A DNA stretch of 52,350 nt, taken from positions 1 through 52,350 of IMG/VR virus record IMGVR_UViG_3300038551_000101. One strand, 5' to 3'. The notes beneath the pieces were generated by a model. It made no database searches, had not been told where the DNA came from, and was given only the letters and a program-made list of their open reading frames with translations. Of this stretch, positions 9,860 to 24,245 are shown piece after piece. Positions within the stretch are counted from its first letter, which is position 1. Each line of letters opens with the position of its first letter. The DNA comes from a virus. Lineage: Duplodnaviria; Caudoviricetes. A program made the position numbers and the translations under genes.

Positions 9860-10120
9860 CTATTTTTGTTCAAAAATTGCGCATTGTAATCGATATCCTT
9901 CTAAATACCAAATTTGATCCGTAATTCGTTTCTTGCAAATTTCAATCCCGATATTCACATCGTAATTAACCGGATCTACACAAGCGCTTGATTCAGTTAA
10001 AATAAATCCGTTTGGCAATTGCGCAACTACTACTGTACATTTACCGTGGAACTCTTCTACTGTCCAATGTGTCTTTTCTAAAATGTTATTAATATCTTCT
10101 TGCGTTACTGTATTTTTCAT
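9860..10120 (-). CDS. acb2: Gp49-family protein, Acb2-like anti-CBASS nucleotide sponge
   Basis: LPNGFILTESSACVDPVNYDVNIG...IWYLEGYRLQ matches the gp49/Acb2 signature. Confidence 0.8.
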   Translation of the reverse strand: MKNTVTQEDINNILEKTHWTVEEFHGKCTVVVAQLPNGFILTESSACVDPVNYDVNIGIEICKKRITDQIWYLEGYRLQCAIFEQK

Positions 10121-10332
10121 TATTCAACAACCTCCCAATTTTCAGCGAATAACTCAATATTCGTTTCTTTCCATGGCACTCTTCCGAATCGACTCTCAAC
10201 ATATAAGTATGGAGCAGTCATTTTACTATGCTCATCAGGAAATTGAGCGCGAATTACTACGTCAGGACTCCATTGTGGTAATCTCATCCCTTTTCCCTTT
10301 TTTACCTCTTCAAAAGCTTGACCAAAATTCAT
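10120..10332 (-). CDS. tad2: DUF2829 protein, Tad2-like anti-Thoeris sponge
   Basis: MNFGQAFEEVKKGKGMRLPQW...PYLY...VPW...LFAENWEVVE; start at ATG 10332. Confidence 0.78.
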   Translation of the reverse strand: MNFGQAFEEVKKGKGMRLPQWSPDVVIRAQFPDEHSKMTAPYLYVESRFGRVPWKETNIELFAENWEVVE

Positions 10333-10382
10333 TTCCTTTCCTCCTCTATTTCCAATCATTGAGTTCGTTTGTTTTGTAAAAC

Positions 10383-10667
10383 TCAGCAAGTCGTCCTTGC
10401 TCTGATTCGCATCGGTTTTCGATTTAGTACCTGCGACTTCATCACTTTATTTTTCACATACCCATAAATTACTCGTGCTGGTTTTCTTTCTTTTGTACAC
10501 TCTTCATAAAACCACACGATTTCTTTAACTTGCTCCTTAACCTGCTCCCACGATTGACGAATCCATTGAACAATTGTTTGAACAGCTTCATAAAACTTCT
10601 TTACAGCTTTCTGCAATATTTCAATATCAACCGATGTATCAACCAATGTTATTATTTGTTTAGTCAT
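10383..10667 (-). CDS. Hypothetical protein
   Basis: 94 aa, overlaps the upstream gene's stop. Confidence 0.6.
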   Translation of the reverse strand: MTKQIITLVDTSVDIEILQKAVKKFYEAVQTIVQWIRQSWEQVKEQVKEIVWFYEECTKERKPARVIYGYVKNKVMKSQVLNRKPMRIRARTTC

Positions 10668-10965: not shown

Positions 10966-11010
10966 AAAAGCCTATTAATCCTGCATAAGAACAGGTTAAT
11001 TAGGCTTTTT
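10966..11010 (-). terminator. Intrinsic terminator (possibly bidirectional)
   Basis: AAAAAGCCTATTAATCCTG...CAGGTTAATTAGGCTTTTT stem with A/T tails. Confidence 0.7.
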
Positions 11011-11895
11011 CAATCCAATCCTGAAGGAATAATGTGATTAAGTTGGCTTCTTAATCATCTCGCAACCACCGCACTGAAATATCATGGCTACACGCCGTGT
11101 GTTCGGTGGCTGGGAGAAGACTAAGAAATGTCCTCTCTTTTATACTCCGTGGAGTCGGAATGAATCGTTCCTCGAGTCAATTCATTCCTGTATGATTAAT
11201 CTGCGCTCAGTTGCGCCGGGGAGAAAGTCCCAAAGTATGAGGTCTACACCCTCTTTCAACATACAATTTTCTATATGCTCAAAGAGAGGTAGGCGCTCTC
11301 TTATAAAGGTTTTTACATTTATATCAAGACGCATGTACTTATTCCGGCGCCTTGTTTGAACCAATATATCAAGGGGAAGGCGAGGGGAACGCCTTTACAT
11401 TGGTTCAAACAAAGAGCCGTAGCTGTAGCTCCTTGCTCGTTTAATTGTTAAAGTCAAATAAAGGCCCTGACTCCATTTGACTTCGTTATATTAATAACCG
11501 CTGTGAGTAATTATTAATATAATTGTGCAATAAATTCCCTCCCCTGCAATTGAATACGAAATCAAGATTCAACATACAGGATGCGCATAAAGGTTTTACT
11601 GCTTTTGAGAACATAAGTAAGGCGTAGGTACTTATATGCTCAATAAGAAGTAAAACATATTGTCTCATCCAATAACCCAGAAGGAATGATTAGTATTAGA
11701 TACAGACAGGCTATAAAACTATAACCTTTGAAAAGAGAATTTCACTCTTCTCATTCCCCGTGCCGAGTTGTCGCAATACTGCTAGGCTCCGCATGTTCCC
11801 TCTGTACAATCTCATGCATCGTCACCATTCAACCCAACCGAGTGCACCTTTGATATAGGAGATAGTGCTCCTCCCATGAATTACTTCATGGGATA
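10966..11895 (-). ncRNA. Candidate large structured RNA / late leader with at least 12 hairpins
   Basis: No credible ORF with RBS; consecutive inverted repeats (see findings). Confidence 0.5.
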
Positions 11896-11954
11896 AGCTT
11901 ACCTCTGATTCAAATAGTAAAAGGTACCCGAAATGGTAGCCCAAAAGTGCCATT

Positions 11955-12347
11955 TTACATAATCCCTAGTGCATCAGCGAAATTTGCAATAGCAGATTTT
12001 TTCTTTCTGTAAAAGGTTCTCCTTTTAATGCCGATCATTGTGTAAATATAATCATCATTGAGTATCTTTGTATTCATGTACTTCATTTCTAATATTTTTC
12101 TCTCATCCTCATCTAGCGCTTCCTCTAATGCTCTTTTAATTTGAATGTATTGGATGTATTTTTTTCTTTCTTCTGGATCTTCCTGACGAGTTGCTTTCAA
12201 TTCCGGGAATAAGATTTCCACCCCAAGTGCTTCCCTCTCTTGCTTATTTTGAAATTTAACTTTTAATACACGGTATTTGTGCAATGCAATAATAACGTCC
12301 TGGAGTAAATCGTTTTCTCCCTCTTTCTTTTGTTGCTTATTCATCAA
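11955..12347 (-). CDS. ArpU/RinA-family late transcriptional activator
   Basis: LDEDERKILEMKYM...DDYIYTMIGIKRRTFYRKKKSAIANFADAL. Confidence 0.85.
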   Translation of the reverse strand: MMNKQQKKEGENDLLQDVIIALHKYRVLKVKFQNKQEREALGVEILFPELKATRQEDPEERKKYIQYIQIKRALEEALDEDERKILEMKYMNTKILNDDYIYTMIGIKRRTFYRKKKSAIANFADALGIM

Positions 12348-12487
12348 GTCAGAATCCCCCTATGTCCAATTTTTAAATAATTCATTTCATTAAGGTACGT
12401 GAAATTTTATTATTTTTATACTGAATAAGGGAACGATGATTACAATACAGCCCCACACCACACTGTTAATCATGGTTCCACTATTCA

Positions 12488-12667
12488 TTAAGCTAATTGT
12501 TTCTGTTTTCCCCTAGCTTTTTTATCTTCAATCCAACCTTCTTGCTTTAGCTGCTTCAAGTCCTTATATTTAAAGGTCCCGTACATCCATATCTTTTGTT
12601 TCTCCCACCCAAATCCTGATTCTTCACGATACAAAAAGCATGATTTACTTCCTGTACGCCTTGGCAT
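12488..12667 (-). CDS. Hypothetical protein (59 aa)
   Basis: Not in track. MPRRTGSKSCFLYREESGFGWEKQKIWMYGTFKYKDLKQLKQEGWIE..., AAGGGGG RBS. Confidence 0.6.
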   Translation of the reverse strand: MPRRTGSKSCFLYREESGFGWEKQKIWMYGTFKYKDLKQLKQEGWIEDKKARGKQKQLA

Positions 12668-12680
12668 TTAATCATCCCCC

Positions 12681-13157
12681 TTATGATCTTATCCATTTCC
12701 GTTTATCCTTGTCCCATATCACTACGATTAACTCCTGTTGATTTTGAAACTCCCACAGCTTTCTTCTGACGGGGAAACCGTCATTGATAGCCTTTTTACT
12801 GCCCTTTACATCAATTACCTCTATACGACCATCTGCATACGTTACTTTAAAATCCGGTGTAAACTTCATCGCTTCTTTCTTCGATTTACCCGACTGCGTT
12901 AAACTGCTTGGAATTGTAAATGATGGTATGAGAGTATAGGAAGGGTGGCATTCAATATGAACGACATCCCTCTTACTTCTCAAATACTTGTAATATCTTG
13001 CTTCAGTCCTGGAATCGAATTGTATACCTTCTACTACAGTTGGGATGCTTTTTATTCTGCCTGACTTACTTTTATCGCTTTTTACTCTCTTAGCCTTTTT
13101 AAGTATCCTTCTCTTAATCTCGATGATCTGTTCCTCGCTCTCCTTGAACTTGTACAC
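12681..13157 (-). CDS. DUF1064 PD-(D/E)xK nuclease
   Basis: GIQFDSRTEARYY, FTPDF, VIDVKG. Confidence 0.85.
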   Translation of the reverse strand: MYKFKESEEQIIEIKRRILKKAKRVKSDKSKSGRIKSIPTVVEGIQFDSRTEARYYKYLRSKRDVVHIECHPSYTLIPSFTIPSSLTQSGKSKKEAMKFTPDFKVTYADGRIEVIDVKGSKKAINDGFPVRRKLWEFQNQQELIVVIWDKDKRKWIRS

Positions 13158-13326
13158 TTTCCTCTCTCAATCTAAAAGCATCTGTTTTTAACCATTCTTT
13201 TCTTATCTTTCGTAAATTATTTATTGATTCATCCTCATGCTTCATCAAACGACCAGAAGCAATTGAACAATTTATACTGATTAAGAAAAATACATCTGCA
13301 AGGAATATCTCCATTTTTCTAATCAT
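13114..13326 (-). CDS. Hypothetical protein
   Basis: 70 aa with AGGAGG RBS. Confidence 0.55.
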   Translation of the reverse strand: MIRKMEIFLADVFFLISINCSIASGRLMKHEDESINNLRKIRKEWLKTDAFRLREESVQVQGERGTDHRD

Positions 13327-13348
13327 GTTTCTTCCTCCTATAAATGGA

Positions 13349-13711
13349 TTATTTTGTTACAAACAGTACTTCTTTTAACTTCCGTAATTCTATAAGTGAC
13401 ATCTTATCAACCGTATCCTTTAATTCTTTTCTTAATTGAGCTTTTTCTTTACCTCTCTCAATCATGTCCCAATATTCCTTTTCGGTCCGATAAGCTTGAT
13501 AATGATATCCCCATCCAGTGTTATGCGATAAATCCTTTTGGTTGAATCTATATGGTGATTTATCTTCTACCCCTTCAGGATTAGCGTAAAAACTTGTTTT
13601 ATTAGCTCTGACAACGATGAATTTTCTTAAATTAGGTTCTGACTTACCTACCCATCCGCCGCTTGTACTCACATAAACTTCTTGACCTTCTTCCATTTTG
13701 ATTTTAGTCAT
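13349..13711 (-). CDS. Hypothetical beta-barrel-like protein
   Basis: 120 aa, GGAGG RBS. Confidence 0.65.
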   Translation of the reverse strand: MTKIKMEEGQEVYVSTSGGWVGKSEPNLRKFIVVRANKTSFYANPEGVEDKSPYRFNQKDLSHNTGWGYHYQAYRTEKEYWDMIERGKEKAQLRKELKDTVDKMSLIELRKLKEVLFVTK

Positions 13712-13798
13712 TTTCTCTTCCTCCCTGAATAAAACTCAATATTCCGTCAATACTATAGATGACACGGTAATCTTTTCTCCTTGTTCCCCCTTGGAGAT

Positions 13799-13829
13799 GA
13801 GCAGTTAGCTTTTGCTAACTGCTCTTTTT
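13799..13829 (+). terminator. Perfect hairpin/terminator
   Basis: GAGCAGTTAGC-TTTT-GCTAACTGCTC-TTTTT. Confidence 0.7.
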
Positions 13830-13980
13830 AATCGTTCATTATTTCTCCGAATATAACGCTTGCTGTATAGTCGTAACAACGTTCACATAACCACTCATTA
13901 CGAGCTGGACTGTAACGAATCGTTGTCTTTTCTTCATCGCATAAATCACATGTTCCGACTTTATCCTCTTCCACATCCAT
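13828..13980 (-). CDS. Small zinc-finger protein (50 aa)
   Basis: Not in track. MDVEEDKVGTCDLCDEEKTTIRYSPARNEWLCERCYDY..., two CxxC, AAGGGG RBS. Confidence 0.65.
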   Translation of the reverse strand: MDVEEDKVGTCDLCDEEKTTIRYSPARNEWLCERCYDYTASVIFGEIMND

Positions 13981-14005
13981 TCCCCTTTTCTACAAAATGA
14001 AATTT

Positions 14006-14290
14006 TTATTGTAATCTTCCTTTATATATCTTTTTGATCTCAATTTCACTGAATCCCTCATACACCGTAAATATTTCCGGAAACTGACTCAAACACATAT
14101 CGATGATCATGTCATCAGTAGTTCTAACGAAAAAGTATTTAACCTCACCCAAGTAATCATTGTGTAGATAATAACTCCTAATCTCGCAATGGTAGCCATT
14201 AGCTTCCAATACTTCATACAGCTTGTTCTTTGTTTCATCTATATCAAATATTGATAACTGTCCCTCCGCAATATCCATTTGTTCTATCAT
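14006..14290 (-). CDS. Hypothetical protein with clamp-binding-like QLSIF motif
   Basis: EGQLSIFD near the N-terminus. Confidence 0.6.
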   Translation of the reverse strand: MIEQMDIAEGQLSIFDIDETKNKLYEVLEANGYHCEIRSYYLHNDYLGEVKYFFVRTTDDMIIDMCLSQFPEIFTVYEGFSEIEIKKIYKGRLQ

Positions 14291-14304
14291 TTCCCCATTC
14301 CCCT

Positions 14305-14826
14305 TTACGCTCGTTTCTTATTCCAAAATGCGTTTGTTCCTCTATAATTGAAAGAACTGGCTTGATATCCCCGTGACGCTGCTTCCGATGGTGTTAGTGT
14401 TGGTGTATTAATAGCTGTTTCTACATCCCATTTCCAGCGTCTTACTCTGCACCATAGCAATTCTCGTGAAATACCGTTACGCTTTGCTCGCTGTACCTGT
14501 TCATCAGTGAATACTGTATCTGTTTTCCTTGTTCTAGCAATCTTAATCGCTTCTTTATTACCTATTACCGATTTTGTTGCTGCCTCGTGCAGATCCCAGC
14601 CTCTTTTCCTACGATCTGCAAATGTTCTATAGCAAATCCCGTGTTCCTCGGCTATGTCCTTGTATTCTTTCCAACCCGTCCCCTTTGAAACTGGCTTAGT
14701 AATTGCCGTTTCCTTTGGCCAGCCGTACGAATATACGCGCTGGCGCAAAGTGTCATTGCTAATGCCGTTCCCTTCTGCTCGTTTGAAATCTTCTGGAGTA
14801 ATGTAGTAGTCATCGCCCATGCCCAT
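14305..14826 (-). CDS. Repeat-HTH-like phage protein, paralog 1
   Basis: Three repeats of A..NGI...T...R....W....A.T.P. Confidence 0.7.
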   Translation of the reverse strand: MGMGDDYYITPEDFKRAEGNGISNDTLRQRVYSYGWPKETAITKPVSKGTGWKEYKDIAEEHGICYRTFADRRKRGWDLHEAATKSVIGNKEAIKIARTRKTDTVFTDEQVQRAKRNGISRELLWCRVRRWKWDVETAINTPTLTPSEAASRGYQASSFNYRGTNAFWNKKRA

Positions 14827-14854
14827 TCCTCTTCCTTCCCAAATAGCGTTTTTG

Positions 14855-15082
14855 TTAAAATCTCTCACTCAAGTCTTCTAGCCAGTATGGTTCTTCAAGC
14901 CAATACCCTTCATCTTGATCGAAACGATAGTATAAAACCTCTCCATCTTCATTTACAAAAGGGTTTGTATATGTGTCATAAGGCTTACTTCCTTCTGGAT
15001 AATAAGTCATCACTTCTTTACCTAACATCGGGCAGTGAATTTTTCCCCATTCAATGGCATTTATCCAATTAAGTTCTTTCAT
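14855..15082 (-). CDS. Hypothetical protein (75 aa)
   Basis: Start MKELNWINAIEWG at 15082 with GAGGGAG RBS. Confidence 0.65.
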   Translation of the reverse strand: MKELNWINAIEWGKIHCPMLGKEVMTYYPEGSKPYDTYTNPFVNEDGEVLYYRFDQDEGYWLEEPYWLEDLSERF

Positions 15083-15122
15083 TCTTTCTCCCTCATTTCT
15101 TAGCAAATAACGATTTTGTGAT

Positions 15123-15203
15123 TTATTTGCTATTTTTCTTTCGATATTCACGCTCTTGCTTTGCAAAGAATTCTTTAACTGCATTTTCCCAATACGTACA
15201 CAT
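15123..15203 (-). CDS. Micro-ORF (26 aa)
   Basis: MCTYWENAVKEFFAKQEREYRKKNSK fills the space between two junction repeats; GGAGTG RBS. Confidence 0.45.
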   Translation of the reverse strand: MCTYWENAVKEFFAKQEREYRKKNSK

Positions 15204-15237
15204 CACTCTTCACTCCATTCCCAAATAAGGATTTTGT

Positions 15238-15603
15238 TTAGTTTCCTAATAACTCTGGGCTTTCATAAATATTCCCGATTACTTCAGCCCAATGTCTCAT
15301 TCTGTGAAGGTACCAACTGCCACAACTTATTTCCATTACTTCGTTATATCCAATCTCATAATTACCATCGACACCAATCGATCTGTCAAAAGGATGACCG
15401 ACAACCTTTACAATGTCACCGATATAAATTTCTGTTCCGTTCTTGTCTTTTAAGCCTGTGTATTGTAGTAATGGAGAATAAAATTTGTCTTCTTTCCCCC
15501 CATTCTTTAAAGTGTCTTTTAAACTATCAAAGTTTAGTATTTCTTCCCAGCTATACATGATTCGATTTTCTTTACCATATATCCGATATTTAACTTCATT
15601 CAT
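15238..15603 (-). CDS. yopX: YopX-family protein
   Basis: QYTGLKDKNGTEIYIGDIV...EVIGNIYESPELL. Confidence 0.9.
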   Translation of the reverse strand: MNEVKYRIYGKENRIMYSWEEILNFDSLKDTLKNGGKEDKFYSPLLQYTGLKDKNGTEIYIGDIVKVVGHPFDRSIGVDGNYEIGYNEVMEISCGSWYLHRMRHWAEVIGNIYESPELLGN

Positions 15604-15630
15604 ATATCTTCCGCCCTTTCCTCCAAATAA

Positions 15631-15939
15631 CTATTTTGTTTGGTTTTTTGACTGTTCAAATGCTTTTTTCTCACAATCTACACATGCTACAATGTCGCCA
15701 TCTTCATCAAATTGATAAATAGACTTTTCTTCAATATCCTTATTTAAAAAGCAAATATCACAATTGAATTGTCTTTTCTTATCCGCTGACTCATCATTGA
15801 TTTTCTTAGTTAATTTAACAGTTCCGATATTCTCATAAGGCTGAACTTCATACCCCTTCAAACTAAGGTATTGTGCTACTTTTTGCATTTCTTTCCATGC
15901 TGCTGTACCTTGACCAAATTCAATAGTTACTGTATTCAT
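15631..15939 (-). CDS. Hypothetical protein with C-terminal zinc finger
   Basis: CDIC...CVDC. Confidence 0.65.
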
Positions 15940-15977
15940 TTCTCATTCTCCCTTTCGTTTTAAAATAACGCTTTTGT

Positions 15978-16067
15978 TCAGTTTTCATCACATTTCCTGC
16001 ATTCGCACTCACAGTTTTCTAATTTCTCTTCACACTTAGCGCAATAATCTATAACTTCATAAATCAT
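15978..16067 (-). CDS. Cys-rich micro-ORF (29 aa)
   Basis: MIYEVIDYCAKCEEKLENCECECRKCDEN, ATGA-coupled to the upstream ORF. Confidence 0.45.
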   Translation of the reverse strand: MIYEVIDYCAKCEEKLENCECECRKCDEN

Positions 16068-16201
16068 TTATTGTCCCTCTTGAACTCTTCCTCTCTGAGA
16101 AGCGCTAACTCCTCTATAGCTTTATCTCTAAATTCAGTCATAAGAAGTATCCTAATAGTTAAACCGTCGTCAGTCAGTTTGCTAATTTGTTCTGCATCCA
16201 T
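16064..16201 (-). CDS. Hypothetical protein (45 aa)
   Basis: MDAEQISKLTDDGLTIRILLMTEFRDKAIEELALLREEEFKRDNK, GGAGAG RBS. Confidence 0.55.
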   Translation of the reverse strand: MDAEQISKLTDDGLTIRILLMTEFRDKAIEELALLREEEFKRDNK

Positions 16202-16251
16202 TTTTCATCTCTCCATTTCTTAATAAAATTCAAATTTGATTAAATTTACTT

Positions 16252-17004
16252 TTAGCCCTCAAAAAACTCACCAATCCAAGGCTCTGCACTCACTGCTTCC
16301 TTTCGTAATTGTTCAGCTAACTCAGTAATTTCGCCTTGAGCGCCCTTTCCTTTCTTACGTTTTGCGTAGAAGTCGAGCAAAGCTCGTAAATTAACAGTTA
16401 AAACCAAATTAGTGCAAGCTGCATTGGGTAGTACGCTTCGAGCATCCTCCGCTGGAATGCCTTTCTTTCTCAAATTGTCGTACATTGATTGGATTATATT
16501 CATCATGTTTTCATACTCTAAATCTAATCCTTTAGCTTTAACCGTCTCAGGAACTACATATTCAAAACCGCCTATTTTATCATCTGATCCCATTTTTACG
16601 TATCGTTGCGATTGCACACTGAAGGAAAAACCTACTCTGTGCCTTGTTAACTGTGCTAATAACGCCCTGCTCACTCCTTCAATCGCATAAGTAAAGGTAA
16701 TATGCTCTAAAGTAGAAGTGTGCTTACTTGAGACAATGTTACGCATTAAACGATGCCCTTCAGTACCTTCTTCCCCATCTTTTGCTTCATTTTTGAAATA
16801 CTTCTCACCTTCTTGGATAATAATCCCCGATGGCTTATTTGCTGCGTAGCAAGTTCTTACCGCTGTAAGAGCAACTGCTTGTCCATGTGTTGCCCCTAAT
16901 TTATCAAACACATTACCTTCTATTTCTATAAAATCGTTATATATATCTAAACTGTCATAAAAACCTTCACTCAGCTGCGTGTGAGCTAATAACTTCACAT
17001 CCAT
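16252..17004 (-). CDS. thyX: FAD-dependent thymidylate synthase
   Basis: HTSTLEH, signature RHRVGFSFSVQSQRYV, EDARSVLPNA. Confidence 0.95.
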   Translation of the reverse strand: MDVKLLAHTQLSEGFYDSLDIYNDFIEIEGNVFDKLGATHGQAVALTAVRTCYAANKPSGIIIQEGEKYFKNEAKDGEEGTEGHRLMRNIVSSKHTSTLEHITFTYAIEGVSRALLAQLTRHRVGFSFSVQSQRYVKMGSDDKIGGFEYVVPETVKAKGLDLEYENMMNIIQSMYDNLRKKGIPAEDARSVLPNAACTNLVLTVNLRALLDFYAKRKKGKGAQGEITELAEQLRKEAVSAEPWIGEFFEG

Positions 17005-17047
17005 GATTACCTTCCCCATTTCCCTATAATATTTTTATTACCGATCA

Positions 17048-17317
17048 TCACTTTATTCCGCTCAAGATTGCTATTTTTACATTCTTTATTTCTAACATTA
17101 AATCCTTAATTGCTGTTGCTTCACTTTCCCTTAATCCTTTGTCTAGTAAAGCGATACAAGCTCTTTCTACATTTGGATAAAATCCAATTGATTTATAATC
17201 AAACTTAATTTCTTCACCCTCTTTGGATTCCTTTTGGTACTTCTGGTTAATAATTACGTTGTAAGCATCTGAAGTAATTTTGTATTTTTCACCAATGTAA
17301 ATCTCCATCCCACTCAC
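17048..17317 (-). CDS. Hypothetical phage protein (DUF5405-like)
   Basis: YKITSDAYNVII...GFYPN pattern. Confidence 0.55.
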   Translation of the reverse strand: MSGMEIYIGEKYKITSDAYNVIINQKYQKESKEGEEIKFDYKSIGFYPNVERACIALLDKGLRESEATAIKDLMLEIKNVKIAILSGIK

Positions 17318-17331
17318 CTCTTCTTATTGGA

Positions 17332-17823
17332 TCAATATCCACTTGCTAACCGATCATAATTTACTTGGTTCTTTTCGAAATATGCCTTTTGCATATCTTC
17401 GTATGTCATTCCTAATTTCAATCCAATAGCTACAATTGTTGATAATGCCTTTATGTAATGATTGAAATCCGAGAAGTCACTTTGATACAACACCTCAAAA
17501 GAATAGTGATATGACTTTAATGATGTTTGATTAATAAGTAATCTTGGTAAATATGTTAGCTCGTTACTGTGTCCGTACTTATTACCAAGACTAGCTATAA
17601 AATGTAAGCAATCAGCCCATTCATCGTACTGACGCGCCTTATTATCCTTTTTGTTCTTCTTCCAATATTTAAAGAATCCGATTTCATTTGAAAGCTCACC
17701 TAACTCCGTATATAACGCCTGTGTTACGTCACCGGTTAGATTTTGTCCTTGTAACCCATGAACCTCAACAACTTTACAATCAAGCTTGTCTTGCGCTTCG
17801 AATATTTTTTGAATGTTTAACAT
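17332..17823 (-). CDS. dut: Dimeric (all-alpha) dUTPase
   Basis: ELGELSNE..FKYWK, EWADCLHF, YFEKNQVNYDRLASGY. Confidence 0.9.
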   Translation of the reverse strand: MLNIQKIFEAQDKLDCKVVEVHGLQGQNLTGDVTQALYTELGELSNEIGFFKYWKKNKKDNKARQYDEWADCLHFIASLGNKYGHSNELTYLPRLLINQTSLKSYHYSFEVLYQSDFSDFNHYIKALSTIVAIGLKLGMTYEDMQKAYFEKNQVNYDRLASGY

Positions 17824-18010
17824 TTAATTTCTCCTTTCCTTTTGTAACAACGATTTGTAAACGTTCACTTTCTTCTTTATGGTGTTTATAAAGCGATTCT
17901 GCCATTTGCAACTCTGCCCTTAACCTGTTTACTTCATCAAACCACTTACTAGCTTGTCCTTGTACATGCTCAAGTGCTTCTTCGTACAGATCAATATGAC
18001 GCGCTTCCAT
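17780..18010 (-). CDS. Coiled-coil hypothetical protein
   Basis: 76 aa, AAGGGG RBS. Confidence 0.55.
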   Translation of the reverse strand: MEARHIDLYEEALEHVQGQASKWFDEVNRLRAELQMAESLYKHHKEESERLQIVVTKGKEKLNVKHSKNIRSARQA

Positions 18011-18050
18011 ACCAACACCCCTTTATTTTCTTTTTGATTCTGCTAGTAAC

Positions 18051-18323
18051 TTAGTAATTTCGTAAACACCGTTTTCCTTTGAGTACATCATTGATTCCCC
18101 CCTCTGCTTTTTCATCGATTTGAATCATTTCATTTCTAACTTCTTGCAAGAATGCGATGTACTTCCCTAATTCCTCCTGATCCATTGTGGACGTATCATC
18201 TACGCTTGAGCATTCAGTAATATCAACGTGACAAATTTGATTCATATTTTCATTACGGACCTTAAATTCAGATAAAGTTACAGCAATTTTCCCGAAATCA
18301 TAAACAAATAACTTACTTATCAT
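18051..18323 (-). CDS. Hypothetical protein
   Basis: 90 aa, GAGGGGG RBS. Confidence 0.55.
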   Translation of the reverse strand: MISKLFVYDFGKIAVTLSEFKVRNENMNQICHVDITECSSVDDTSTMDQEELGKYIAFLQEVRNEMIQIDEKAEGGINDVLKGKRCLRNY

Positions 18324-18447
18324 CTATATCCCCCTCTAATAAACGTTCTAGTTCTTCACAAGATCCTTCGTATAAATCTCGATCACCCGGTAACTTAAAT
18401 ATGTTTCTGCTAATCAATTGCTCTATTAAAAACTGCTTACTATCCAT
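18313..18447 (-). CDS. FbpA-family small basic protein (44 aa)
   Basis: Not in track. MDSKQFLIEQLISRNIFKLPGDRDLYEGSCEELERLL..., GGAGG RBS. Confidence 0.6.
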   Translation of the reverse strand: MDSKQFLIEQLISRNIFKLPGDRDLYEGSCEELERLLEGDIDDK

Positions 18448-18457
18448 GATTCCTCCA

Positions 18458-18976
18458 CTACGCCTTTTTTCTTAAATTTAATTTTTTTCCATTTCTATAA
18501 AAATCATTATCAGCATTTGCTCGTTTCGCGACCTCTTGAGGTGTTAATACCGGTGTCTCAATTGCTTCTTTTTTATCCCATTTACAAGCCTTAACTCTTT
18601 TTAAAAGCGTTGAATAGTTAATCCCATTTTGTTGTGCTTGTTTTATTTGTTCTTCTGTAAAAGGGCGTTTCGCTCTTCTAGCATCTAATGATAGTTGTAA
18701 TACTTCTTTTCTTGTTTTAGGAGGTGTTGTCGCTGCTATCACTGCATCCCATCCTTCTTGTCGTCTCCTTCTAAATGTTCGTTCAGATACGCCATTTTCT
18801 AGTGCAATTTGTTTGAATTCTTTCCAACCTCTATTTTTGGTTTTCCTTACTGGTGTTGTTATGGCCTTTTCTTTATTCCAGCGGTAAATATAAACTCGAT
18901 CACTTAATAATTTATTACTAATTCCGAACGCTTCTGCTCTCTTATAGTCTTCATCAGTAATGTAATATCCAGTCAT
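18458..18976 (-). CDS. Repeat-HTH-like phage protein, paralog 2
   Basis: YYITDEDYKRAEAFGIS... aligns with 14305..14826. Confidence 0.7.
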   Translation of the reverse strand: MTGYYITDEDYKRAEAFGISNKLLSDRVYIYRWNKEKAITTPVRKTKNRGWKEFKQIALENGVSERTFRRRRQEGWDAVIAATTPPKTRKEVLQLSLDARRAKRPFTEEQIKQAQQNGINYSTLLKRVKACKWDKKEAIETPVLTPQEVAKRANADNDFYRNGKKLNLRKKA

Positions 18977-19017
18977 TGTAACGGTTTCCTTTCGCTTTTC
19001 CTCACCTCTTGAAATAA

Positions 19018-19443
19018 TTAATTGGAACAACGTCTGCCTGTTTCAATAGGTGGTATTGTAGCCGCCAATTCTATATCCCATTTATAATTACGTATCCGAG
19101 AATAAAATGTTTGATAATTAATACCGTTCTTCTCAGCTAACTCAGCCATTTCTTTAATCAAATTAGATGTTTTTCTAACTGGTTTCGTCGCCGCTTCTTC
19201 TGGAGTAAACCCTAAGGAAATACGACTATAAAATGTATTAGGATTCATTCCGTTTTGAACTGCGATTCCTAACCATATTTCAGATTGACTTTGCTTTGAT
19301 TTACGTTTCTTACCAGGTGGCGTTGTTATCGCTTCTTCCTTATCCCAAGCACAGTTATAAACTCGATTTCTTAATGTATTCTTGTTTATTCCATGAGCTT
19401 CCGCACGTTTATAATCAGATTGATTTAAAATCCCCTTTTTCAT
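19018..19443 (-). CDS. Repeat-HTH-like phage protein, paralog 3
   Basis: DYKRAEAHGINKNTLRNRVYNCAWDKEEAITTP and two further repeats. Confidence 0.7.
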   Translation of the reverse strand: MKKGILNQSDYKRAEAHGINKNTLRNRVYNCAWDKEEAITTPPGKKRKSKQSQSEIWLGIAVQNGMNPNTFYSRISLGFTPEEAATKPVRKTSNLIKEMAELAEKNGINYQTFYSRIRNYKWDIELAATIPPIETGRRCSN

Positions 19444-19456
19444 TTCAATCCCCCTA

Positions 19457-19723
19457 CTAATCTAGTTCCATAATCTCTGCCAATGACCACTTACTTATCA
19501 CTGTTTTTATAATTTGAATTTTCCCGTATCTTCCTTTTGCAGATTCTTCTGCATCTGTTGCATTCTTTTCTTCAAACCAATCAATTTTCTGCTTCTCGTC
19601 TTGATCATAGAAGTGAACCTCGTATACCGTTATGTCGCTAGGCTTCGCAAGAAATCGTTCTGCCGTGCTTGTTGCAGTATAATCAAAACTTCCCACAACA
19701 TCCTCCAGCGTTAACTGTTTCAT
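19457..19723 (-). CDS. Hypothetical phage protein
   Basis: 88 aa, MKQLTLED start. Confidence 0.65.
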   Translation of the reverse strand: MKQLTLEDVVGSFDYTATSTAERFLAKPSDITVYEVHFYDQDEKQKIDWFEEKNATDAEESAKGRYGKIQIIKTVISKWSLAEIMELD

Positions 19724-20007
19724 GCTCCTAATCCCATTGGACGCGATTTGATTAGTTTTTTATCTGCCTGATCCATAATCAATGCTGCGATTTCTAATTG
19801 ATGTCTTCCCATATCCACCGCAATCTCAATAAAGCTTTTTCCTTCTTTCCACATTTCTTGAAATCGAATCACTTCATTTTCATCAAATACCAGGTCCAAC
19901 TCTTCTAGAGCGATATATAAATTACGACGCGATTTCTTCATGTACTTTCTCTGTTGCAACGCCATTGTGTAATTTTCCTTTTCCAAATCCGTTCCAAGTC
20001 TCGGCAT
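19720..20007 (-). CDS. HTH DNA-binding protein
   Basis: MWKEGKSFIEIAVDMGRHQLEIAALIMD. Confidence 0.7.
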   Translation of the reverse strand: MPRLGTDLEKENYTMALQQRKYMKKSRRNLYIALEELDLVFDENEVIRFQEMWKEGKSFIEIAVDMGRHQLEIAALIMDQADKKLIKSRPMGLGA

Positions 20008-20194
20008 CCCATTTCCCCTCCGTTTGTAATTTATGAATTTCTCTTAATTCCGCCATAATGGTATGACGCTTTCTATCTATTTCCTCTGGCGTTTGATTTG
20101 CTGCTTCGCAAACACATGGTCCAAACTGATACATTCCCATGCCAATTCCGTTTTGAATCACTCCAGTTCCGTTACACGCGCACATAATCGTCAC
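19922..20194 (-). CDS. Zinc-binding hypothetical protein
   Basis: CACNGTG...PCVC. Confidence 0.6.
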   Translation of the reverse strand: MTIMCACNGTGVIQNGIGMGMYQFGPCVCEAANQTPEEIDRKRHTIMAELREIHKLQTEGKWDAETWNGFGKGKLHNGVATEKVHEEIAS

Positions 20195-20639
20195 CCTTTC
20201 TTATTACCACTTCAATATCACGTTCTGATATTTGAGCTACTGCAAAAGCCATGTTATTATGACCGGCGATTTTTACTCTTAACTTGTTGAAGATGTACAG
20301 CAACTCTTTGTTTGAAAATTCAGTTTTTTTACCTGTTGGTTTTCTCAGTAATTCACCTTCCGTTTTTTCTAACACATCAATTTCTATACTGAATTTATCT
20401 TCATCAATCTTTTGATGCACTTCTCTTATGGTCTTACGAAATCCATAATGTTTACCTACCGCTTTTATCAAATCGAACAACATTTTCCTTTCAATCCTTC
20501 TTACAGTTGGATCGCCATAGCATATTGAACAAGCTGTTATCTTTTTCTCTTCAATGTACACTTCGTAGATGTCGATGTTATCAATGGCTGCTGCGCATAT
20601 ATCACAAAACGGTTTGGACGGTGCTTCGTAATTTAACAA
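20172..20639 (-). CDS. Hypothetical protein with N-terminal zinc finger
   Basis: CDIC...CSIC. Confidence 0.65.
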   Translation of the reverse strand: MLNYEAPSKPFCDICAAAIDNIDIYEVYIEEKKITACSICYGDPTVRRIERKMLFDLIKAVGKHYGFRKTIREVHQKIDEDKFSIEIDVLEKTEGELLRKPTGKKTEFSNKELLYIFNKLRVKIAGHNNMAFAVAQISERDIEVVIRKGDDYVRV

Positions 20640-20654
20640 TTTTGGTTCCCCCTT

Positions 20655-21500
20655 TTAAAATTCAAGTTTTCTCCTTCTGAAATCTTTGGTTTCTTTAAAT
20701 ACAATAGACAACCTGTTTCCTAATAACCGTGACACAATTCGTTCGTCATACGCTTCTTCTATTCTGTCGCCAGATAAATTCGTTGTGATAATTGTTGCTT
20801 TACCTTGTCTTCCGTCAAAAATCGAGAATAATATTGTATTTATAAAACGAGTAGCTTTATCATTGCCGTTTAAAGCCCCTAACTCTGCGCCTAGGTCATC
20901 TAAGATGAGAAACTCAACTTCCACTAACCTGCGAATGATATCGTCTTCTGTGAGGGCGCTGTCTTTGTTAAATGTGCTTTTTATTTTCCTAACAAGTTCA
21001 CTCATCGTAATAAAAACAACTTCCCTGTTTCTCTCTTGTAATGTTTTTCCAATGGCATACGCTAAATGAGTTTTTCCTGCTCCGCAATTACCAACCAATA
21101 ACAAATTAATTTTTCGATTATCCAATAAATCTTTTGCTGCTTGTATTGCTGCTTGTGCATTATCTCTAGCTTCATCGCTTGTAGGATGATAATTTTCAAA
21201 TCTCGCATTCTTAATTGCAATATCTGCTATCAAACTTTCTTTTTCAAAAGCCATTTTTTTCTCGTTATCCTTAAATTCATTCCAACGTGCATTTTCTGAT
21301 TCGATAATAGGTTGTGCTTGCTCCCGGCTATAGCAAATTGGACATGTTGGTTTACCATCATTTATTCCTTTTACACATAACATTGGAAAAGGTTTTTTAT
21401 GATTTTCGCTATTATTACAAACATCAGAACTCATACTGGAATTCGCCTTTTTGACTAAATGTTTTATTACCGGATTCGTTGTTACCTGAACGGTTTCCAT
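20655..21500 (-). CDS. DnaC/IstB-like AAA+ helicase loader
   Basis: GNCGAGKT, LILDDLG, TIITTNL, ERIVSRL. Confidence 0.92.
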   Translation of the reverse strand: METVQVTTNPVIKHLVKKANSSMSSDVCNNSENHKKPFPMLCVKGINDGKPTCPICYSREQAQPIIESENARWNEFKDNEKKMAFEKESLIADIAIKNARFENYHPTSDEARDNAQAAIQAAKDLLDNRKINLLLVGNCGAGKTHLAYAIGKTLQERNREVVFITMSELVRKIKSTFNKDSALTEDDIIRRLVEVEFLILDDLGAELGALNGNDKATRFINTILFSIFDGRQGKATIITTNLSGDRIEEAYDERIVSRLLGNRLSIVFKETKDFRRRKLEF

Positions 21501-22356
21501 TTTTATCAGTTCCTTTCGTTTTTTCCTCTTTCACTTCAATCACCAAACGATCCCATTGCTTTCTTAATTTAGATGGAGATAAAATATTCTTTCTCCAAAA
21601 TGAATTGTTCTGCGACCACTTAATCAGGTACGTGATTTGTTCGTTTGTTTTTTTATCACGTTCTCGTATTAAACGAAATTCATTTGCCCATTTATCTAAA
21701 TCAGGTTTTTTATGATCAGGATTCGTATCTAAAATAAATTTAAATAACAATTCAGCATGCTCCATGTCGCAAGTTTCAAACTTGAGACGAGAAGTCTTTT
21801 TAGGTGTAGTAATCTTTGTAGTATTCTCTGTAGTAATCTTTGTATTTGTCTTACGTTCTAACGTAGGAGGGTCCTCCGTTTTATCGGGGGAGGGTGGTAC
21901 GTTAGAATGTAAGACCCTCTTACGTTCTAACGTACCAGGGTCTTGATATAAAATTGAAATTTTCATTATTTCTTCCGGTACTGGCTCTATAAACATTACA
22001 TTGTTATGTTTCATGCCATTTATTACAAGAGTCCTAAGTTCTGTTTTAACAAGCTTTTTATCTTTCAAATAATCACATGCATCTTTTACTTGCCTTTTAG
22101 TGAACCCGAATGTTTCCGCAAGCTGCGCATAACTTTTCTGTAATTTATCCGCTTTAAACTTTTGTTTGTAAGAAATATCATTTGTTTCTTCATCTCTTAT
22201 TTCAGTCGGTGTATACCAGTAATAGACTTCACTTAATAAAACTATTGCCACCACATATGGCTTTCCATTTTCTAAAGTAAGATGTTTAAACCACCCTTGA
22301 TCCATCGTATTACCCCGTAAGTTTATTCTTGCGACTTTCATTACATTGTTGTTCAT
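21424..22356 (-). CDS. Phage lytic replication initiator
   Basis: N-terminal wHTH, C-terminal FWRKNILSPSKLRKQWDRL; adjacent to loader; internal iterons. Confidence 0.85.
   Translation of the reverse strand: MNNNVMKVARINLRGNTMDQGWFKHLTLENGKPYVVAIVLLSEVYYWYTPTEIRDEETNDISYKQKFKADKLQKSYAQLAETFGFTKRQVKDACDYLKDKKLVKTELRTLVINGMKHNNVMFIEPVPEEIMKISILYQDPGTLERKRVLHSNVPPSPDKTEDPPTLERKTNTKITTENTTKITTPKKTSRLKFETCDMEHAELLFKFILDTNPDHKKPDLDKWANEFRLIRERDKKTNEQITYLIKWSQNNSFWRKNILSPSKLRKQWDRLVIEVKEEKTKGTDKNGNRSGNNESGNKTFSQKGEFQYEF
21852..21934. repeat. Iterons of the lytic origin within the initiator gene
   Basis: TACGTTCTAACGTA at 21852 and 21921; inverted variant TACGTTAGAATGTA at 21898. Confidence 0.7.
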
Positions 22357-22564
22357 CTGATTCACCTTCTCCATCTAATCGCTCACATATTGCAAAGCTG
22401 CTATTAATATCAATTTCTAGCAAGTTATAACCTTTATAATTTTTCTTCAGATATGTTTTTACTAGTTTTTCAAGATCCTGGCGTGATGCCGCCTTTTTAA
22501 AAATCGCTGCACTTATTAAAACTCTGTGTACTTCCTTTCGGTCAAACACTGCCAGTCCTCCCAT
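22310..22564 (-). CDS. Hypothetical protein
   Basis: 84 aa, AAGGAGG RBS. Confidence 0.6.
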   Translation of the reverse strand: MGGLAVFDRKEVHRVLISAAIFKKAASRQDLEKLVKTYLKKNYKGYNLLEIDINSSFAICERLDGEGESDEQQCNESRKNKLTG

Positions 22565-22575
22565 ATCATTCCTCC

Positions 22576-22672
22576 TTGTATTTAGGAGAAAACATTTGGT
22601 ATAATATTGTTAATATTGTTGCGTCAATATTTTGTTTTCTCCAGAGTCGATTAGGGGTAATCGACTCTTTTA
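22576..22672 (+). ncRNA. Candidate short antisense RNA (promoter plus terminator)
   Basis: TTGTAT-18-TATAAT with upstream TG, then AGAGTCGATTA-GGGG-TAATCGACTCT-TTT. Confidence 0.5.
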
Positions 22673-22772
22673 TTTTGTTTTGATGCTATGCGCATCATCA
22701 TGGCTAAGAACGAGGTGGAGAGGTGTGGGTGTCCGCTCCCAGCCATGATGACAAGCATAGGCTTGTCCACCC

Positions 22773-22961
22773 CTATAACATAAGTACTTCTAAGACTTCT
22801 TTCGCGCATCGCTTATGTTCTTTATCCCATCGATTCATTTCTTCTTTATTTCCTCTTAATTCGGCGATCAGTTCTTTAAAGGAATACTGGGCCATACACT
22901 CATGTCGTTTTTCTATGTAAGATGCTTTTTCTTCTTGCGTCATTACTGGTGCTGCACTCAT
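22773..22961 (-). CDS. Hypothetical protein
   Basis: MSAAPVMTQEE..., ATGA-coupled. Confidence 0.55.
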   Translation of the reverse strand: MSAAPVMTQEEKASYIEKRHECMAQYSFKELIAELRGNKEEMNRWDKEHKRCAKEVLEVLML

Positions 22962-23083
22962 CGTTTCACATCCTTTGACCAACCTGTTTTTTTATCCCAA
23001 ATATCAATCAAATGTACCGCAATAACTGCTGTACAAATCACCACAGCGACAATAAATAAAGATAGTTCACTTTGTTGTTCCAT
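22958..23083 (-). CDS. Small single-TM protein (41 aa)
   Basis: Not in track. MEQQSELSLFIVAVVICTAVIAVHLIDIWDKKTGWSKDVKR, AGGAGG RBS. Confidence 0.6.
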   Translation of the reverse strand: MEQQSELSLFIVAVVICTAVIAVHLIDIWDKKTGWSKDVKR

Positions 23084-23116
23084 CTCAATCTCCTCCTGAT
23101 TTTTATTCCAGTGGAT

Positions 23117-23359
23117 CTATGATGTCAGTTTGTCCTTCTTGTCCTTCTTAACTCGCGTTACGCGAGTGGGGTTATAAAAAAAATTATCTGCTGATACTCC
23201 ATAAAACTCCGCAATTCTCATAGCTATATTCCATCTTGGATTCTTCTTACCATTTTCAATCTCACAATAGTAATTCGAAGAAATATCTAGAATTTTAGCT
23301 ACTTCAAACTGCTTTAAACGTTTACTTTCCCGCAATTTGATTAACCATTCTCTTTTCAT
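23117..23359 (-). CDS. cro: Cro-like XRE HTH regulator
   Basis: 80-aa XRE HTH, first gene of the lytic operon, divergent from cI. Confidence 0.8.
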   Translation of the reverse strand: MKREWLIKLRESKRLKQFEVAKILDISSNYYCEIENGKKNPRWNIAMRIAEFYGVSADNFFYNPTRVTRVKKDKKDKLTS

Positions 23360-23468
23360 GTTTACCTCCGATGTCTTATGTTTGATTTTAGTATACTCGC
23401 GTTTCGCGAATATGTAAATACCCTTTTTAAAAATTTTCAGAATTAAAATAAATTCGCGGAGCGCGAAA
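23151..23468. promoter_or_regulatory. Three 17-bp immunity operators
   Basis: ACTCGCGTTACGCGAGT (23151), ACTCGCGTTTCGCGAAT (23395), ATTCGCGGAGCGCGAAA (23452). Confidence 0.8.
23390..23418 (-). promoter_or_regulatory. SigA lytic promoter (Pcro)
   Basis: TTTACA-17 bp-TATACT, with an operator filling the spacer. Confidence 0.75.
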
Positions 23469-23475
23469 AAAACAA

Positions 23476-23503
23476 TTGATTTTGTCTTATGAAATGGTAT
23501 CTT
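23476..23503 (+). promoter_or_regulatory. SigA promoter for cI
   Basis: TTGATT-16 bp-TATCTT with extended TG. Confidence 0.55.
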
Positions 23504-23525
23504 TATTTATAGGGAGGTTTTTCTT

Positions 23526-23873
23526 ATGAATATCGGGGAACGTTTAAAATATTTACGAAACAAAAGAAAATGGACTATGAAAGAGACTTCTTCTAAAATA
23601 GGAGTTAGTGACTCTACTTATAGTGGATATGAAACGAATTATAGAAAACCAGATGCTGAAATGATCTGTAAATTAGCAGAATTGCATAATACATCAACAG
23701 ACTTCATCCTTTGTAAAACAGATGATCCTTCATTAGAAAAAGAAGTTACATCTAACATCAAGGATTTTTTTGATAATCAAGCGCTACATTGGGATGGAAA
23801 AGAATTATCTAAAGATGATATAGAAAGTCTAAAAGATCTGCTTGAAATAGCAGTAAAAAGAATGCTGAAGTAA
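23526..23873 (+). CDS. cI: cI-like XRE immunity repressor (no peptidase domain)
   Basis: XRE HTH plus C-terminal LHWDGKELS domain; divergent from cro. Confidence 0.8.
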   Translation: MNIGERLKYLRNKRKWTMKETSSKIGVSDSTYSGYETNYRKPDAEMICKLAELHNTSTDFILCKTDDPSLEKEVTSNIKDFFDNQALHWDGKELSKDDIESLKDLLEIAVKRMLK

Positions 23874-23875
23874 TG

Positions 23876-23910
23876 AAAAAAGGATTAGCAATTAAGCTAT
23901 TCCTTTTTTT
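23876..23910. terminator. Bidirectional terminator between cI and the aimX-position ORF
   Basis: AAAAAAGGATTAGC-AATTAA-GCTATTCCTTTTTTT. Confidence 0.7.
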
Positions 23911-24056
23911 GTTTGCTGTTTATTTTGAAAAGCTCGTATTTCCTTATCAGATAATAAACCTTGTTTGCTTAGCTTCTCTAAAACGGTTTCTACGTCTCCA
24001 GTTACGCTCCCGCTCCCCATTAACACTTGAATCATTTGTTTCGCTTTCTTCTCCAT
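23892..24056 (-). CDS. Candidate arbitrium effector (aimX position), 54 aa
   Basis: Not in track. MEKKAKQMIQVLMGSGSVTGDVETVLEKLSKQGLLSDKEIRAFQNKQQTKKGIA; GGAGG 9 nt upstream. Confidence 0.6.
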   Translation of the reverse strand: MEKKAKQMIQVLMGSGSVTGDVETVLEKLSKQGLLSDKEIRAFQNKQQTKKGIA

Positions 24057-24245
24057 CTCCATCATCCTCCAACATTTTTTATAAGGTAAATCTTAGTTAC
24101 AGTATATAATCCCCTTTAAACTTTCCTTAGTTGTTCGTAATAAATGACAATCCTCATTCTCTAGATTCCACTGTAAATCATAAAGTGGAAAGTTTTTGTC
24201 GTTTTCGGAAAAGGAAAGTAAAAAAACTTTCCAATCCCTATAACG

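Follow-up and report, generated by a model that had tools for sequence, protein, structure and literature searches.

The question raised by this locus is what a short sequence, repeated with little change between one small gene and the next, is doing in the early operon of a phage genome. The genome is the IMG/VR record IMGVR_UViG_3300038551_000101, a complete virus record of 52,350 bp and 36.5% G+C that was analysed whole and is called the window below. The preliminary description listed ten gene-junction sites on its minus strand and took them for the scars or targets of an integron-like, site-specific system. We found that the repeated element, which we call a linker, is an 18 bp sequence (AAYAAAA-N4-YATTTKR) with strong minus-strand copies at 15961, 15623, 15221, 15103, 14839 and 13993. 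The motif is real and non-random, and linkers mark the joints of single-gene exchange. They come in types that keep a fixed order along the operon, and we see an even chance that they form an ordered rack of slot-specific linkers at which short homology guides gene exchange. The copies and variants in the window are as follows, with scores from the position weight matrix (PWM) described below; lengths of open reading frames (ORFs) are in amino acids (aa).

15961 to 15978, minus strand: type 1 linker, centre GCGTT, AACAAAAGCGTTATTTTA, between the 29-aa and 102-aa ORFs; 25.0 bits.
15623 to 15640, minus strand: type 2 linker, centre TAGTT, AACAAAATAGTTATTTGG, exact pattern match; 22.4 bits.
15221 to 15238, minus strand: linker with centre TCCTT, a variant of types 3/4 (TTCTT/TCTTT), AACAAAATCCTTATTTGG, exact pattern match; 24.4 bits.
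15103 to 15120, minus strand: type 5 linker, centre TCGTT, a weaker copy, CACAAAATCGTTATTTGC, two mismatches to the pattern; 15.2 bits.
14839 to 14856, minus strand: type 6 linker, centre ACGCT, AACAAAAACGCTATTTGG, exact pattern match; 24.5 bits.
13993 to 14010, minus strand: type 8 linker, centre ATTTC, AATAAAAATTTCATTTTG, then TAGAAAAGGGGAATG and a start codon; 20.5 bits.
16224 to 16241, minus strand: variant junction element of 'TTTGA' type, AATCAAATTTGAATTTTA, upstream of ORF 16064-16201; 2.5 bits.
13341 to 13358, minus strand: variant linker with a centre 1 nt longer, AACAAAATAATCCATTTA, then the ribosome-binding site (RBS) of ORF 13114-13326; 2.7 bits.
14321 to 14341, minus strand: degenerate copy, 2 nt shorter, AACAAACGCATTTTGG, inside the 3′ end of ORF 14305-14826; −3.7 bits.

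Six of the ten sites first listed are therefore strong copies (15-25 bits) and three, at 13341, 14324 and 16224, are length variants scoring below 3 bits. The tenth, near 13727 (13731), is not a copy (−14.6 bits) and is part of a separate element at 13707-13828, discussed further on. The exact pattern AACAAAANNNNTATTTGG (AACAAAA-N4-TATTTGG) occurs three times, at 14839, 15221 and 15623, all on the minus strand. With up to two mismatches allowed, the window holds eight matches, compared with a mean of 2.24 and a maximum of 7 in dinucleotide shuffles, and 0 of 100 shuffles reached eight. Five of the eight are junction sites (including 15103 and 15961), and the remaining three (197, 14561 and 42176) resemble chance. 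The PWM rests on 57 unique instances drawn from 16 phages; the window itself supplied five of them, which makes the window scores slightly circular. Over all window positions the 99.99th percentile of this score is 8.2 bits; at 14 bits or more, the coding strand has eight matches and the other strand none, against 0.2-0.3 per strand in shuffles, which bears out the expected enrichment of the motif. The array holds six of these eight, and the only two outside it are weak (14.9 and 15.4 bits, near 25040 and 205). No linker was found at the other early-operon junctions of the window, and the structural genes carry no such run of motifs, as had been said before; linkers are restricted to about 2.7 kb of the window, in the accessory part of the early operon that separates thyX from the late activator.

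Within that region the linker takes up a regular position between two genes. Its left arm starts at or overlaps the upstream stop codon: at the 77 linkers for which an upstream ORF was called, that codon ends at linker position −5 to +10 in 63; in the type 2 linker of the window, TAG is itself the stop codon of ORF 15631-15939. Between the linker and the next start codon, 12-21 nt past it, lies a strong Shine-Dalgarno sequence, often TAGAAAAGGAGAATG. Of the 101 linkers in the 16 phages, 69 have a start codon behind them, at a median distance of 19 nt (interquartile range 14-20, mode 19-20); the other 32 have no start codon called within 60 nt and are followed by non-coding inserts with G+C-rich hairpins instead.

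The 4-5 nt centres of the linkers fall into eight discrete recurring types between the shared arms AAYAAAA and YATTTKR. Along the operon these types run GCGTT > TAGTT > TTCTT > TCTTT > TCGTT > ACGCT > ACTTC > ATTTC, numbered 1 to 8, and the window carries types 1, 2, the TCCTT variant, 5, 6 and 8. Pairs of linkers in the 16 phages agree with this order in 230 cases and disagree in 2, and with two near-duplicates removed, 0 of 10,000 within-genome permutations of the remaining 14 phages reached the observed value. The core of the site does vary, as the preliminary description had it, but it is not free. In prophage loci from outside the set that defined the order, 46 pairs were concordant and 10 discordant, and one such locus resembles two tandem arrays. 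A Bacillus nitratireducens contig (minus strand, 244-2057) reads TCGTT, ACGCT, ATTTC and then GCGTT, TAGTT, ACGCT, ATTTC, and looks like a duplicated or double array. Ordered, heterospecific linker types are the feature that looks new: we found no description of the motif in the literature, and five linker strings occurred in no searchable paper, with subscription journals and supplementary files outside the reach of these searches.

Megablast of positions 12000-18000 returned gene-sized patches only, in 48 phage records of which 44 are Bacillus phages, and none covers 80% of the query; the region is therefore highly mosaic. For comparison with the window we chose 15 relatives from at least eight genera (Waukeshavirus, Wbetavirus, Camtrevirus, Hubeivirus, Pushchinovirus, Beceayunavirus, Rockvillevirus and Cecivirus). 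All 15 have exact matches to AAYAAAANNNNYATTTKR, from 2 to 8 per phage and 63 in total, 62 of them on the array strand, while the backwards control pattern gave 0. At a PWM score of 14 bits or more the 16 genomes hold 100 forward and 2 reverse matches, and reversed or complemented controls gave 0-1. We also made an independent draw of ten phages picked by similarity of their dUTPase protein. The sole temperate B. cereus phage among them, PHBA67-T, carries two linkers, TAGTT then TTCTT, just downstream of dUTPase; phi105 has one stray match; and none occurs in the two lytic B. cereus podoviruses or in the six drawn phages of Geobacillus, Aeribacillus, Paenibacillus, Psychrobacillus, B. megaterium and Bacillus sp. 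Among prokaryotic genomes, taken at one per species, a 25-base pattern (type 6 linker plus RBS) gave 17 matches. B. cereus-group species account for 12 of them, and a contig with the label Paenibacillus sp. for one more; further linkers lie nearby at most of these 13 places, and the remaining four matches are solitary and in unrelated taxa. A 14-base pattern run on viral contigs was uninformative, as its at least 116 stretches were nearly all single chance matches.

What identifies linkers as exchange joints is where homology stops. Within the array spans, 123 of 192 unique ends of blastn high-scoring segment pairs (HSPs) fall no more than 30 bp from a linker centre, against 31.9 expected if ends were uniform, and on this point the preliminary description, which saw joints for the gain, loss and replacement of single-gene units, holds up. 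Linkers carry about 1.2 ends each, compared with 0.35 for the linker-free gene junctions of the same arrays (11 ends, 31 junctions). When two phages share only the upstream gene (19 unique pairs), similarity stops at linker position 16-18 in 13 pairs and at 21-31 in 6; when they share only the downstream gene (14 unique pairs), it begins at −10 to +3 in 13 and at +12 in one. Identical centres occur in 20 of the 27 upstream-only and 16 of the 21 downstream-only pairs, compared with 405 of 4,691 unrelated pairs. The linker is thus owned by neither neighbour gene, and the shared patch is the 18-mer, sometimes plus the RBS; linkers of the same type often share 30-50 bp including the RBS. Only two HSPs of 96% identity or less cross a linker with 40 nt on each side, and in these the linker is identical at 36 of 36 positions while the flanks are 88.8% identical.

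The same breaks can be followed from site to site in the window. Homology with phiS58, TP21T, phiCM3 and 11143 begins at 15966-15955, at the type 1 linker, and around the type 2 linker homology blocks end at 15644-15625 or begin at 15639. The TCCTT linker comes after the YopX gene, and homology to the YopX of IEBH stops at 15222-15223; a Booya block begins at 15107 in the type 5 linker, and homology to Booya and B83 stops at 14840 in type 6. The type 8 linker is matched on its own, in linker-only HSPs of 30-60 bp and 88-100% identity to 11 phages that differ in both flanking genes. As for the variants, the 16224 junction is kept in phi4J1 and phiCM3 (35-46 bp, 85-91% identity) and AACAAAATTTGAATTTTG in phiS58 resembles it, Athena homology stops at 13338 beside the 13341 variant, and no break in the blastn comparison with relatives maps to the degenerate copy at 14321-14341. 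Contigs from four public runs part from the window at 13341/13346 (the 13341 variant), 14017 (type 8), 15223 (TCCTT), 15623/15624 (type 2) and 15978/15985/15986 (type 1), and one metagenome has at least two different genes behind the type 2 linker. Contig joints from 13828 to 13984/13992, 14016 to 14823, 14260 to 15957, 15244 to 15625 and 15647/15649 to 15959-15963 were not used as evidence for deletions or circles, because their short sides are 20-31 nt, the likeness minimum was 88 and linkers may cross-match.

The genes between the linkers change far more than the linkers do. Across the phages, 91 array ORFs (median 74 aa) fall into 61 clusters, and 43 of these clusters occur in a single phage only. 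The slot between type 1 and type 2 alone has at least nine unrelated contents, and 9 of the 18 clusters seen in more than one phage sit behind more than one linker type. The rack of linkers is more conserved than its contents.

We also looked for a structure or signal in the linker itself. The imperfect palindrome reported earlier is present, as YAAAA-N6-TTTTR, but it gives no stable hairpin: of 80 unique 22-mers at linkers, 41 are predicted to be unfolded, the mean minimum free energy is −0.58 kcal/mol, and z is −0.3 against shuffles. No covariation was seen in the palindrome between position 3 and positions 17-18, and we rejected the reading of it as a hairpin in RNA or single-stranded DNA on both counts. 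Between 11500 and 17500 there are 13 promoter-like matches, below the shuffle mean of 20.6; several lie inside cassette ORFs and none at any linker, so a promoter reading was rejected as well. A search of Rfam with positions 11000-17000 at E up to 1 gave no match, and comparison of the arms, by eye only, with cre, the CodY box, the ComK AT-box, dif and the NusG pause TTNTTT gave no convincing match.

In the rack that we propose, the linker would serve as the standard spacer between cistrons, running from stop codon to strong RBS, in the accessory early operon of temperate B. cereus-group phages. Up to eight linkers per phage, with common arms, a centre of their own each and a fixed order, would make up a rack of numbered slots. 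In a cell that contains two such phages or prophages, the linker (18 bp, often 30-50 bp with the RBS) would be the sole common sequence around unrelated accessory genes, and short-homology recombination could swap the gene or genes lying between two linkers. Unlike centres would pair poorly, which would keep the register and make deletions within a genome rare. Host recombination would probably supply the machinery, with homology rather than a dedicated enzyme driving the exchange, and the events would be rare yet retained because every product would be viable. The arms may also persist because they help expression, as an A/U-rich leader without structure ahead of the start codon; a leader or processing role is plausible given the preference for one strand and the constant spacing to the start codon.

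Several points weigh against this proposal. The 13 of 19 upstream-only pairs that end at linker position 16-18 suggest that some exchanges took place with only about 18 bp of identity, which is less than RecA-type recombination uses efficiently. RecT, ERF, Rad52, Sak and Sak4 each exceeded the cut-off in 0 of the 16 phages, despite their very mosaic early regions, and with no single-strand annealing protein the route through a 'relaxed phage recombinase' is unsupported. Phage T4 has an active recombination system of its own, whereas the phages here have no recognisable annealing recombinase among these five. In 12 of 48 one-sided pairs the centres differ and only 7-13 bp of arm are shared, so exchange between unlike linkers also occurs; at these cross-type joints the breaks fall either within the left arm or where the centre ends on the right. 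Homology alone leaves the constancy of the arms across eight types unexplained, and a second function must be assumed, with no promoter-like match, Rfam family, stable fold or covariation at the linkers to indicate what the arms do. It is also important to note that the 15 relatives were retrieved through similarity to the array region, which biases the count of 15 out of 15, that shared recent ancestry (phiS58, Waukesha92 and TP21T; 11143, A16R4, MY192 and IEBH) means the pair counts are not independent, and that ORFs were called by a simple script.

An alternative is that the linker is purely an expression or regulatory element, such as an RNase site, a leader that opens the RBS or a binding site for a DNA- or RNA-binding protein, and that joints coincide with it passively at gene boundaries. 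We consider this unlikely, although it accounts well for the presence of the element on one strand only (transcribed sense), for its narrow distance to the start codon (mode 19-20 nt), and for arms constant across paralogous types, which implies purifying selection. In an isolate RNA-seq library, contigs matching the 102-aa ORF (window 15496-15863) at a depth of 12,000-25,000 stop at the flanking linkers, and the other matched parts of the array stand at 12-209, a weak hint in the same direction as these are mean contig depths. With that said, illegitimate joints would give broken, doubled or missing elements, and what we observed is one intact linker per joint with homology stopping at its edges. 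Homology ends are about a third as frequent at linker-free junctions of the same arrays, and the element matches no RNA family or promoter and has neither stable structure nor covariation. Furthermore, the 32 of 101 linkers that lack a start codon within 60 nt include some that lead into non-coding hairpin inserts and not into genes.

A particular form of this alternative is the stoperator. Stoperators of cluster A mycobacteriophages are short asymmetric intergenic sites in one orientation relative to transcription that often overlap stop or start codons, and linkers are likewise short, asymmetric, intergenic and of one orientation. Stoperators occur genome-wide and match the phage's own repressor, whereas linkers are confined to about 3 kb and are nearly the same between phages whose CI/Cro proteins are only 28-39% identical. 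We excluded a stoperator identity for these reasons.

Site-specific cassette exchange is less probable still. Here the YAAAA arms and a 6-nt spacer would be the site of an enzyme acting in trans, from the host or another element, and eight heterospecific spacers would let sites of the same type recombine and so swap cassettes slot for slot. Such exchange would explain the arms (an inverted repeat constant over all types), the sharply bounded unit of about 18 bp and the type-specific, strictly ordered centres more directly than homology does. The single orientation of all sites fits it, as does the lack of a single-strand annealing protein to aid short-homology recombination; arrays persist in phages without an integrase, and a host enzyme would suit the restriction to one host group. 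The difficulty is that no candidate enzyme emerged. PF00589 and PF00239 are both missing from the whole window and from IEBH, in line with the earlier statement that the window encodes no recombinase. Elsewhere PF00589 is found in 13 of the 16 phages as differing integrases at differing places, and it is absent from the window, Booya and IEBH, all three of which have arrays; PF00239 is found in 2 of 16. All-against-all clustering gave no protein family common to all 16 phages except a broad Xre-type helix-turn-helix cluster, and phrog_1065 (PVL-ORF50-like), considered as a universal partner protein of linkers, was rejected with a presence in 9 of 16 phages only. A dedicated phage-borne site-specific enzyme for the linkers is unlikely. 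The arms, at 5-7 bp, are shorter than the binding arms of known tyrosine recombinase sites, cross-type joints exist and would have to be tolerated, and homology predicts the same observations, since central mismatches also block short-homology exchange.

A small PF00589 tyrosine-recombinase-like ORF (an open frame of about 180-190 aa) lies after the late regulator in 6 of the 16 phages, about 2-3 kb downstream of the arrays. Its copy in Athena has an in-frame TAA, and the window is without it.

Two known systems bear on this alternative. Integron attC sites are imperfect inverted repeats of 57-141 bp (about 60-140 bp) that fold as single strands, and the promoterless cassette genes of an integron depend on a shared promoter upstream of them. 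Integrons and the linker array have in common small genes of the same orientation, imperfect inverted-repeat sites and a content that varies between relatives, and the six canonical linkers have no promoter-like match, though cassette ORFs contain such matches. There is, however, no IntI, attI or Pc here, and the sites are 18 bp and unfolded. Integron cassettes carry their own attC at the 3′ end, whereas linkers are not carried with the upstream gene (20/27 same-centre upstream-only pairs against 16/21 downstream-only), and the order of integron sites follows the order of insertion, whereas linker centres keep one order (230 pairs to 2). The array fails as an integron on recombinase, attC structure and cassette-linked sites; with the type of site following the slot and not the cassette, the integron-like identity put forward earlier has to be given up.

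The second system, recombinase-mediated cassette exchange, was engineered from Cre or Flp and relies on heterospecific lox or FRT sites. Common arms with differing centres there allow slot-for-slot exchange without intramolecular deletion, and linkers resemble lox and FRT sites in this design; they differ in that the system is engineered, the arms here are much shorter and no recombinase was found. That linkers are a natural counterpart of it, heterospecific sites for an enzyme of the B. cereus-group host or its mobile elements, is the more specific claim and the more doubtful one. If it were true, accessory genes, among them probably counter-defence genes, would pass slot for slot between temperate phages of many genera with the register kept. 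Lastly, a chance likeness of AT-rich spacers that hold a stop codon and an RBS leader, as a genome of 36.5% G+C and arms made of A and T runs might suggest, is extremely improbable given eight window matches against 0.2 per strand in shuffles, 63 matches in 15 phages against 0 for the backwards pattern, eight outgroup phages with no match and one with a single match, and discrete centre types recurring in a fixed order.

The cassette genes themselves are 11 small ORFs in the downstream part of the early operon, all on the minus strand and each with a Shine-Dalgarno sequence of its own; they are taken from the ORF list, with names from Pfam and PHROGs:

16064-16201, minus strand: 45 aa.
15978-16067, minus strand: 29 aa.
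15631-15939, minus strand: 102 aa, phrog_6309.
15238-15603, minus strand: YopX, 121 aa.
15123-15206, minus strand: 27 aa.
14855-15082, minus strand: 75 aa.
14305-14826, minus strand: 173 aa, phrog_1065.
14006-14290, minus strand: 94 aa.
13828-13980, minus strand: 50 aa.
13349-13711, minus strand: ProQ-C-like, 120 aa.
13114-13326, minus strand: 70 aa.

Judging by the contig depths given above, which are a weak measure, the homologue of the 102-aa ORF may be strongly expressed. A search of genome contigs for loci related to this protein gave 134 pattern matches, none of which was confirmed. The 173-aa product is one of three phrog_1065 paralogues in the window, at 14305-14826 (in a rack slot), 18458-18976 and 19018-19443, and IEBH has five or six matches; these paralogues show weak similarity to PVL_ORF50 and to the C-terminal part of HNH endonucleases. 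Slots without an ORF hold non-coding inserts of 100-315 bp with G+C-rich hairpins (positions 3097-3917 of the A16R4 record; also 11143, MY192 and IEBH), which may be terminators, small RNAs or remnants, and some of them are related to the CAGCTAG..CTAACTG hairpin of the following element:

13707-13828, minus-strand sense: separate conserved non-coding element of about 120 nt at the downstream end of the array.

This element, in which the misread tenth site lies, consists of a hairpin, GAGCAGTTAGC-AAAA-GCTAACTGCTC, and then TATTGACGGAATATTGAGTTTTATTCAGG immediately ahead of varied start codons. It is found in 13 of the 15 relatives, with two copies in 11143 and IEBH. The hairpin at 13799-13824 with its T-run reads as a terminator on the plus strand, and it is the only terminator-like hairpin in the array region. 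Contigs of an RNA library cover 13656-13839 at a depth of about 8,500. The element could be a small antisense RNA, a conserved leader or a promoter.

Around the array, the early operon occupies the minus strand: Cro comes first, then replication genes, dUTPase and ThyX, and then the 11 small ORFs (16201 down to 13114). The genes that frame it and the other features we used to place the genome, assigned with Pfam and PHROGs, are:

17332-17823, minus strand: dUTPase, upstream of the array.
16252-17004, minus strand: ThyX, upstream of the array.
12681-13157, minus strand: DUF1064 Holliday-junction-resolvase-like, downstream of the array.
11955-12347, minus strand: late transcriptional activator, downstream of the array.
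23526-23873, plus strand, and 23117-23359, minus strand: divergent CI/Cro pair.
24473-25669: AimR-like regulator.
28154-29563: plasmid-type replication protein, phrog_9432.
30202-30990: ParA.

Junction resolvases adjoin the array, DUF1064 in the window and an annotated RecU in phiS58. The virion genes of the window (portal, terminase, SU10-type capsid, baseplate J and sheath initiator) form a contractile-tail module, and the window looks like a phage-plasmid of the B. cereus group because it has ParA and a plasmid-type replication protein and no tyrosine or serine recombinase domain anywhere. Between the late activator and the terminase lies another accessory region, without linkers, that holds Tad2-like (Thoeris anti-defence 2) and N4 gp49/Sf6 gp66 family genes at 9860-10389.

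The array is best filed as a form of conserved-linker-mediated modular exchange, closest to the PeSL motifs of T4-type phages and to the boundary sequences of the modular theory. As described in the accessible parts of two papers (PMC2839356; PMC4122927), PeSLs are conserved intergenic motifs of hyperplastic, ORFan-rich regions, each filling the space between the stop codon of one gene and the Shine-Dalgarno sequence of the next; ORFans are shuffled by recombination between these motifs, which also contain the ends of indels and replacements. Linkers share with PeSLs, on that account, a repeated motif in a variable region, the placement between stop codon and Shine-Dalgarno sequence, and replacement ends inside the motif. 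They differ in that PeSLs are described there as composites of sigma-70 promoters and terminator stem-loops, whereas linkers have no promoter-like match or stable stem-loop, are only 18 bp long, lie inside one operon and come as eight types in a fixed order, an order of which those parts of the papers give no description for PeSLs. In lambdoid phages the modular theory proposed that short conserved sequences at module boundaries guide homologous recombination, according to the accessible part of PMC3029335. Linkers are like these boundary sequences, so described, in being a short conserved sequence at the joint of unrelated neighbours, and unlike them in occupying most junctions of a whole region, in resolving single genes, in recurring in at least eight genera of one host group and in having slot-specific variants.

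The same source, as far as it is accessible, indicates that the idea of phage 'linkers' was mostly set aside, as conserved boundary sequences were not found at most mosaic joints (PMC3029335). Here such sequences were found and resolve single genes; they recur in at least eight phage genera of a single host group and come in numbered, ordered types besides. They leave the puzzle of precise exchange at about 18 bp in phages without a recombinase of their own. If the proposed rack holds, it would provide a concrete route by which temperate B. cereus-group phages exchange small accessory genes, a simple sequence flag for the region where accessory genes lie, and a natural design that keeps multi-gene arrays in register.

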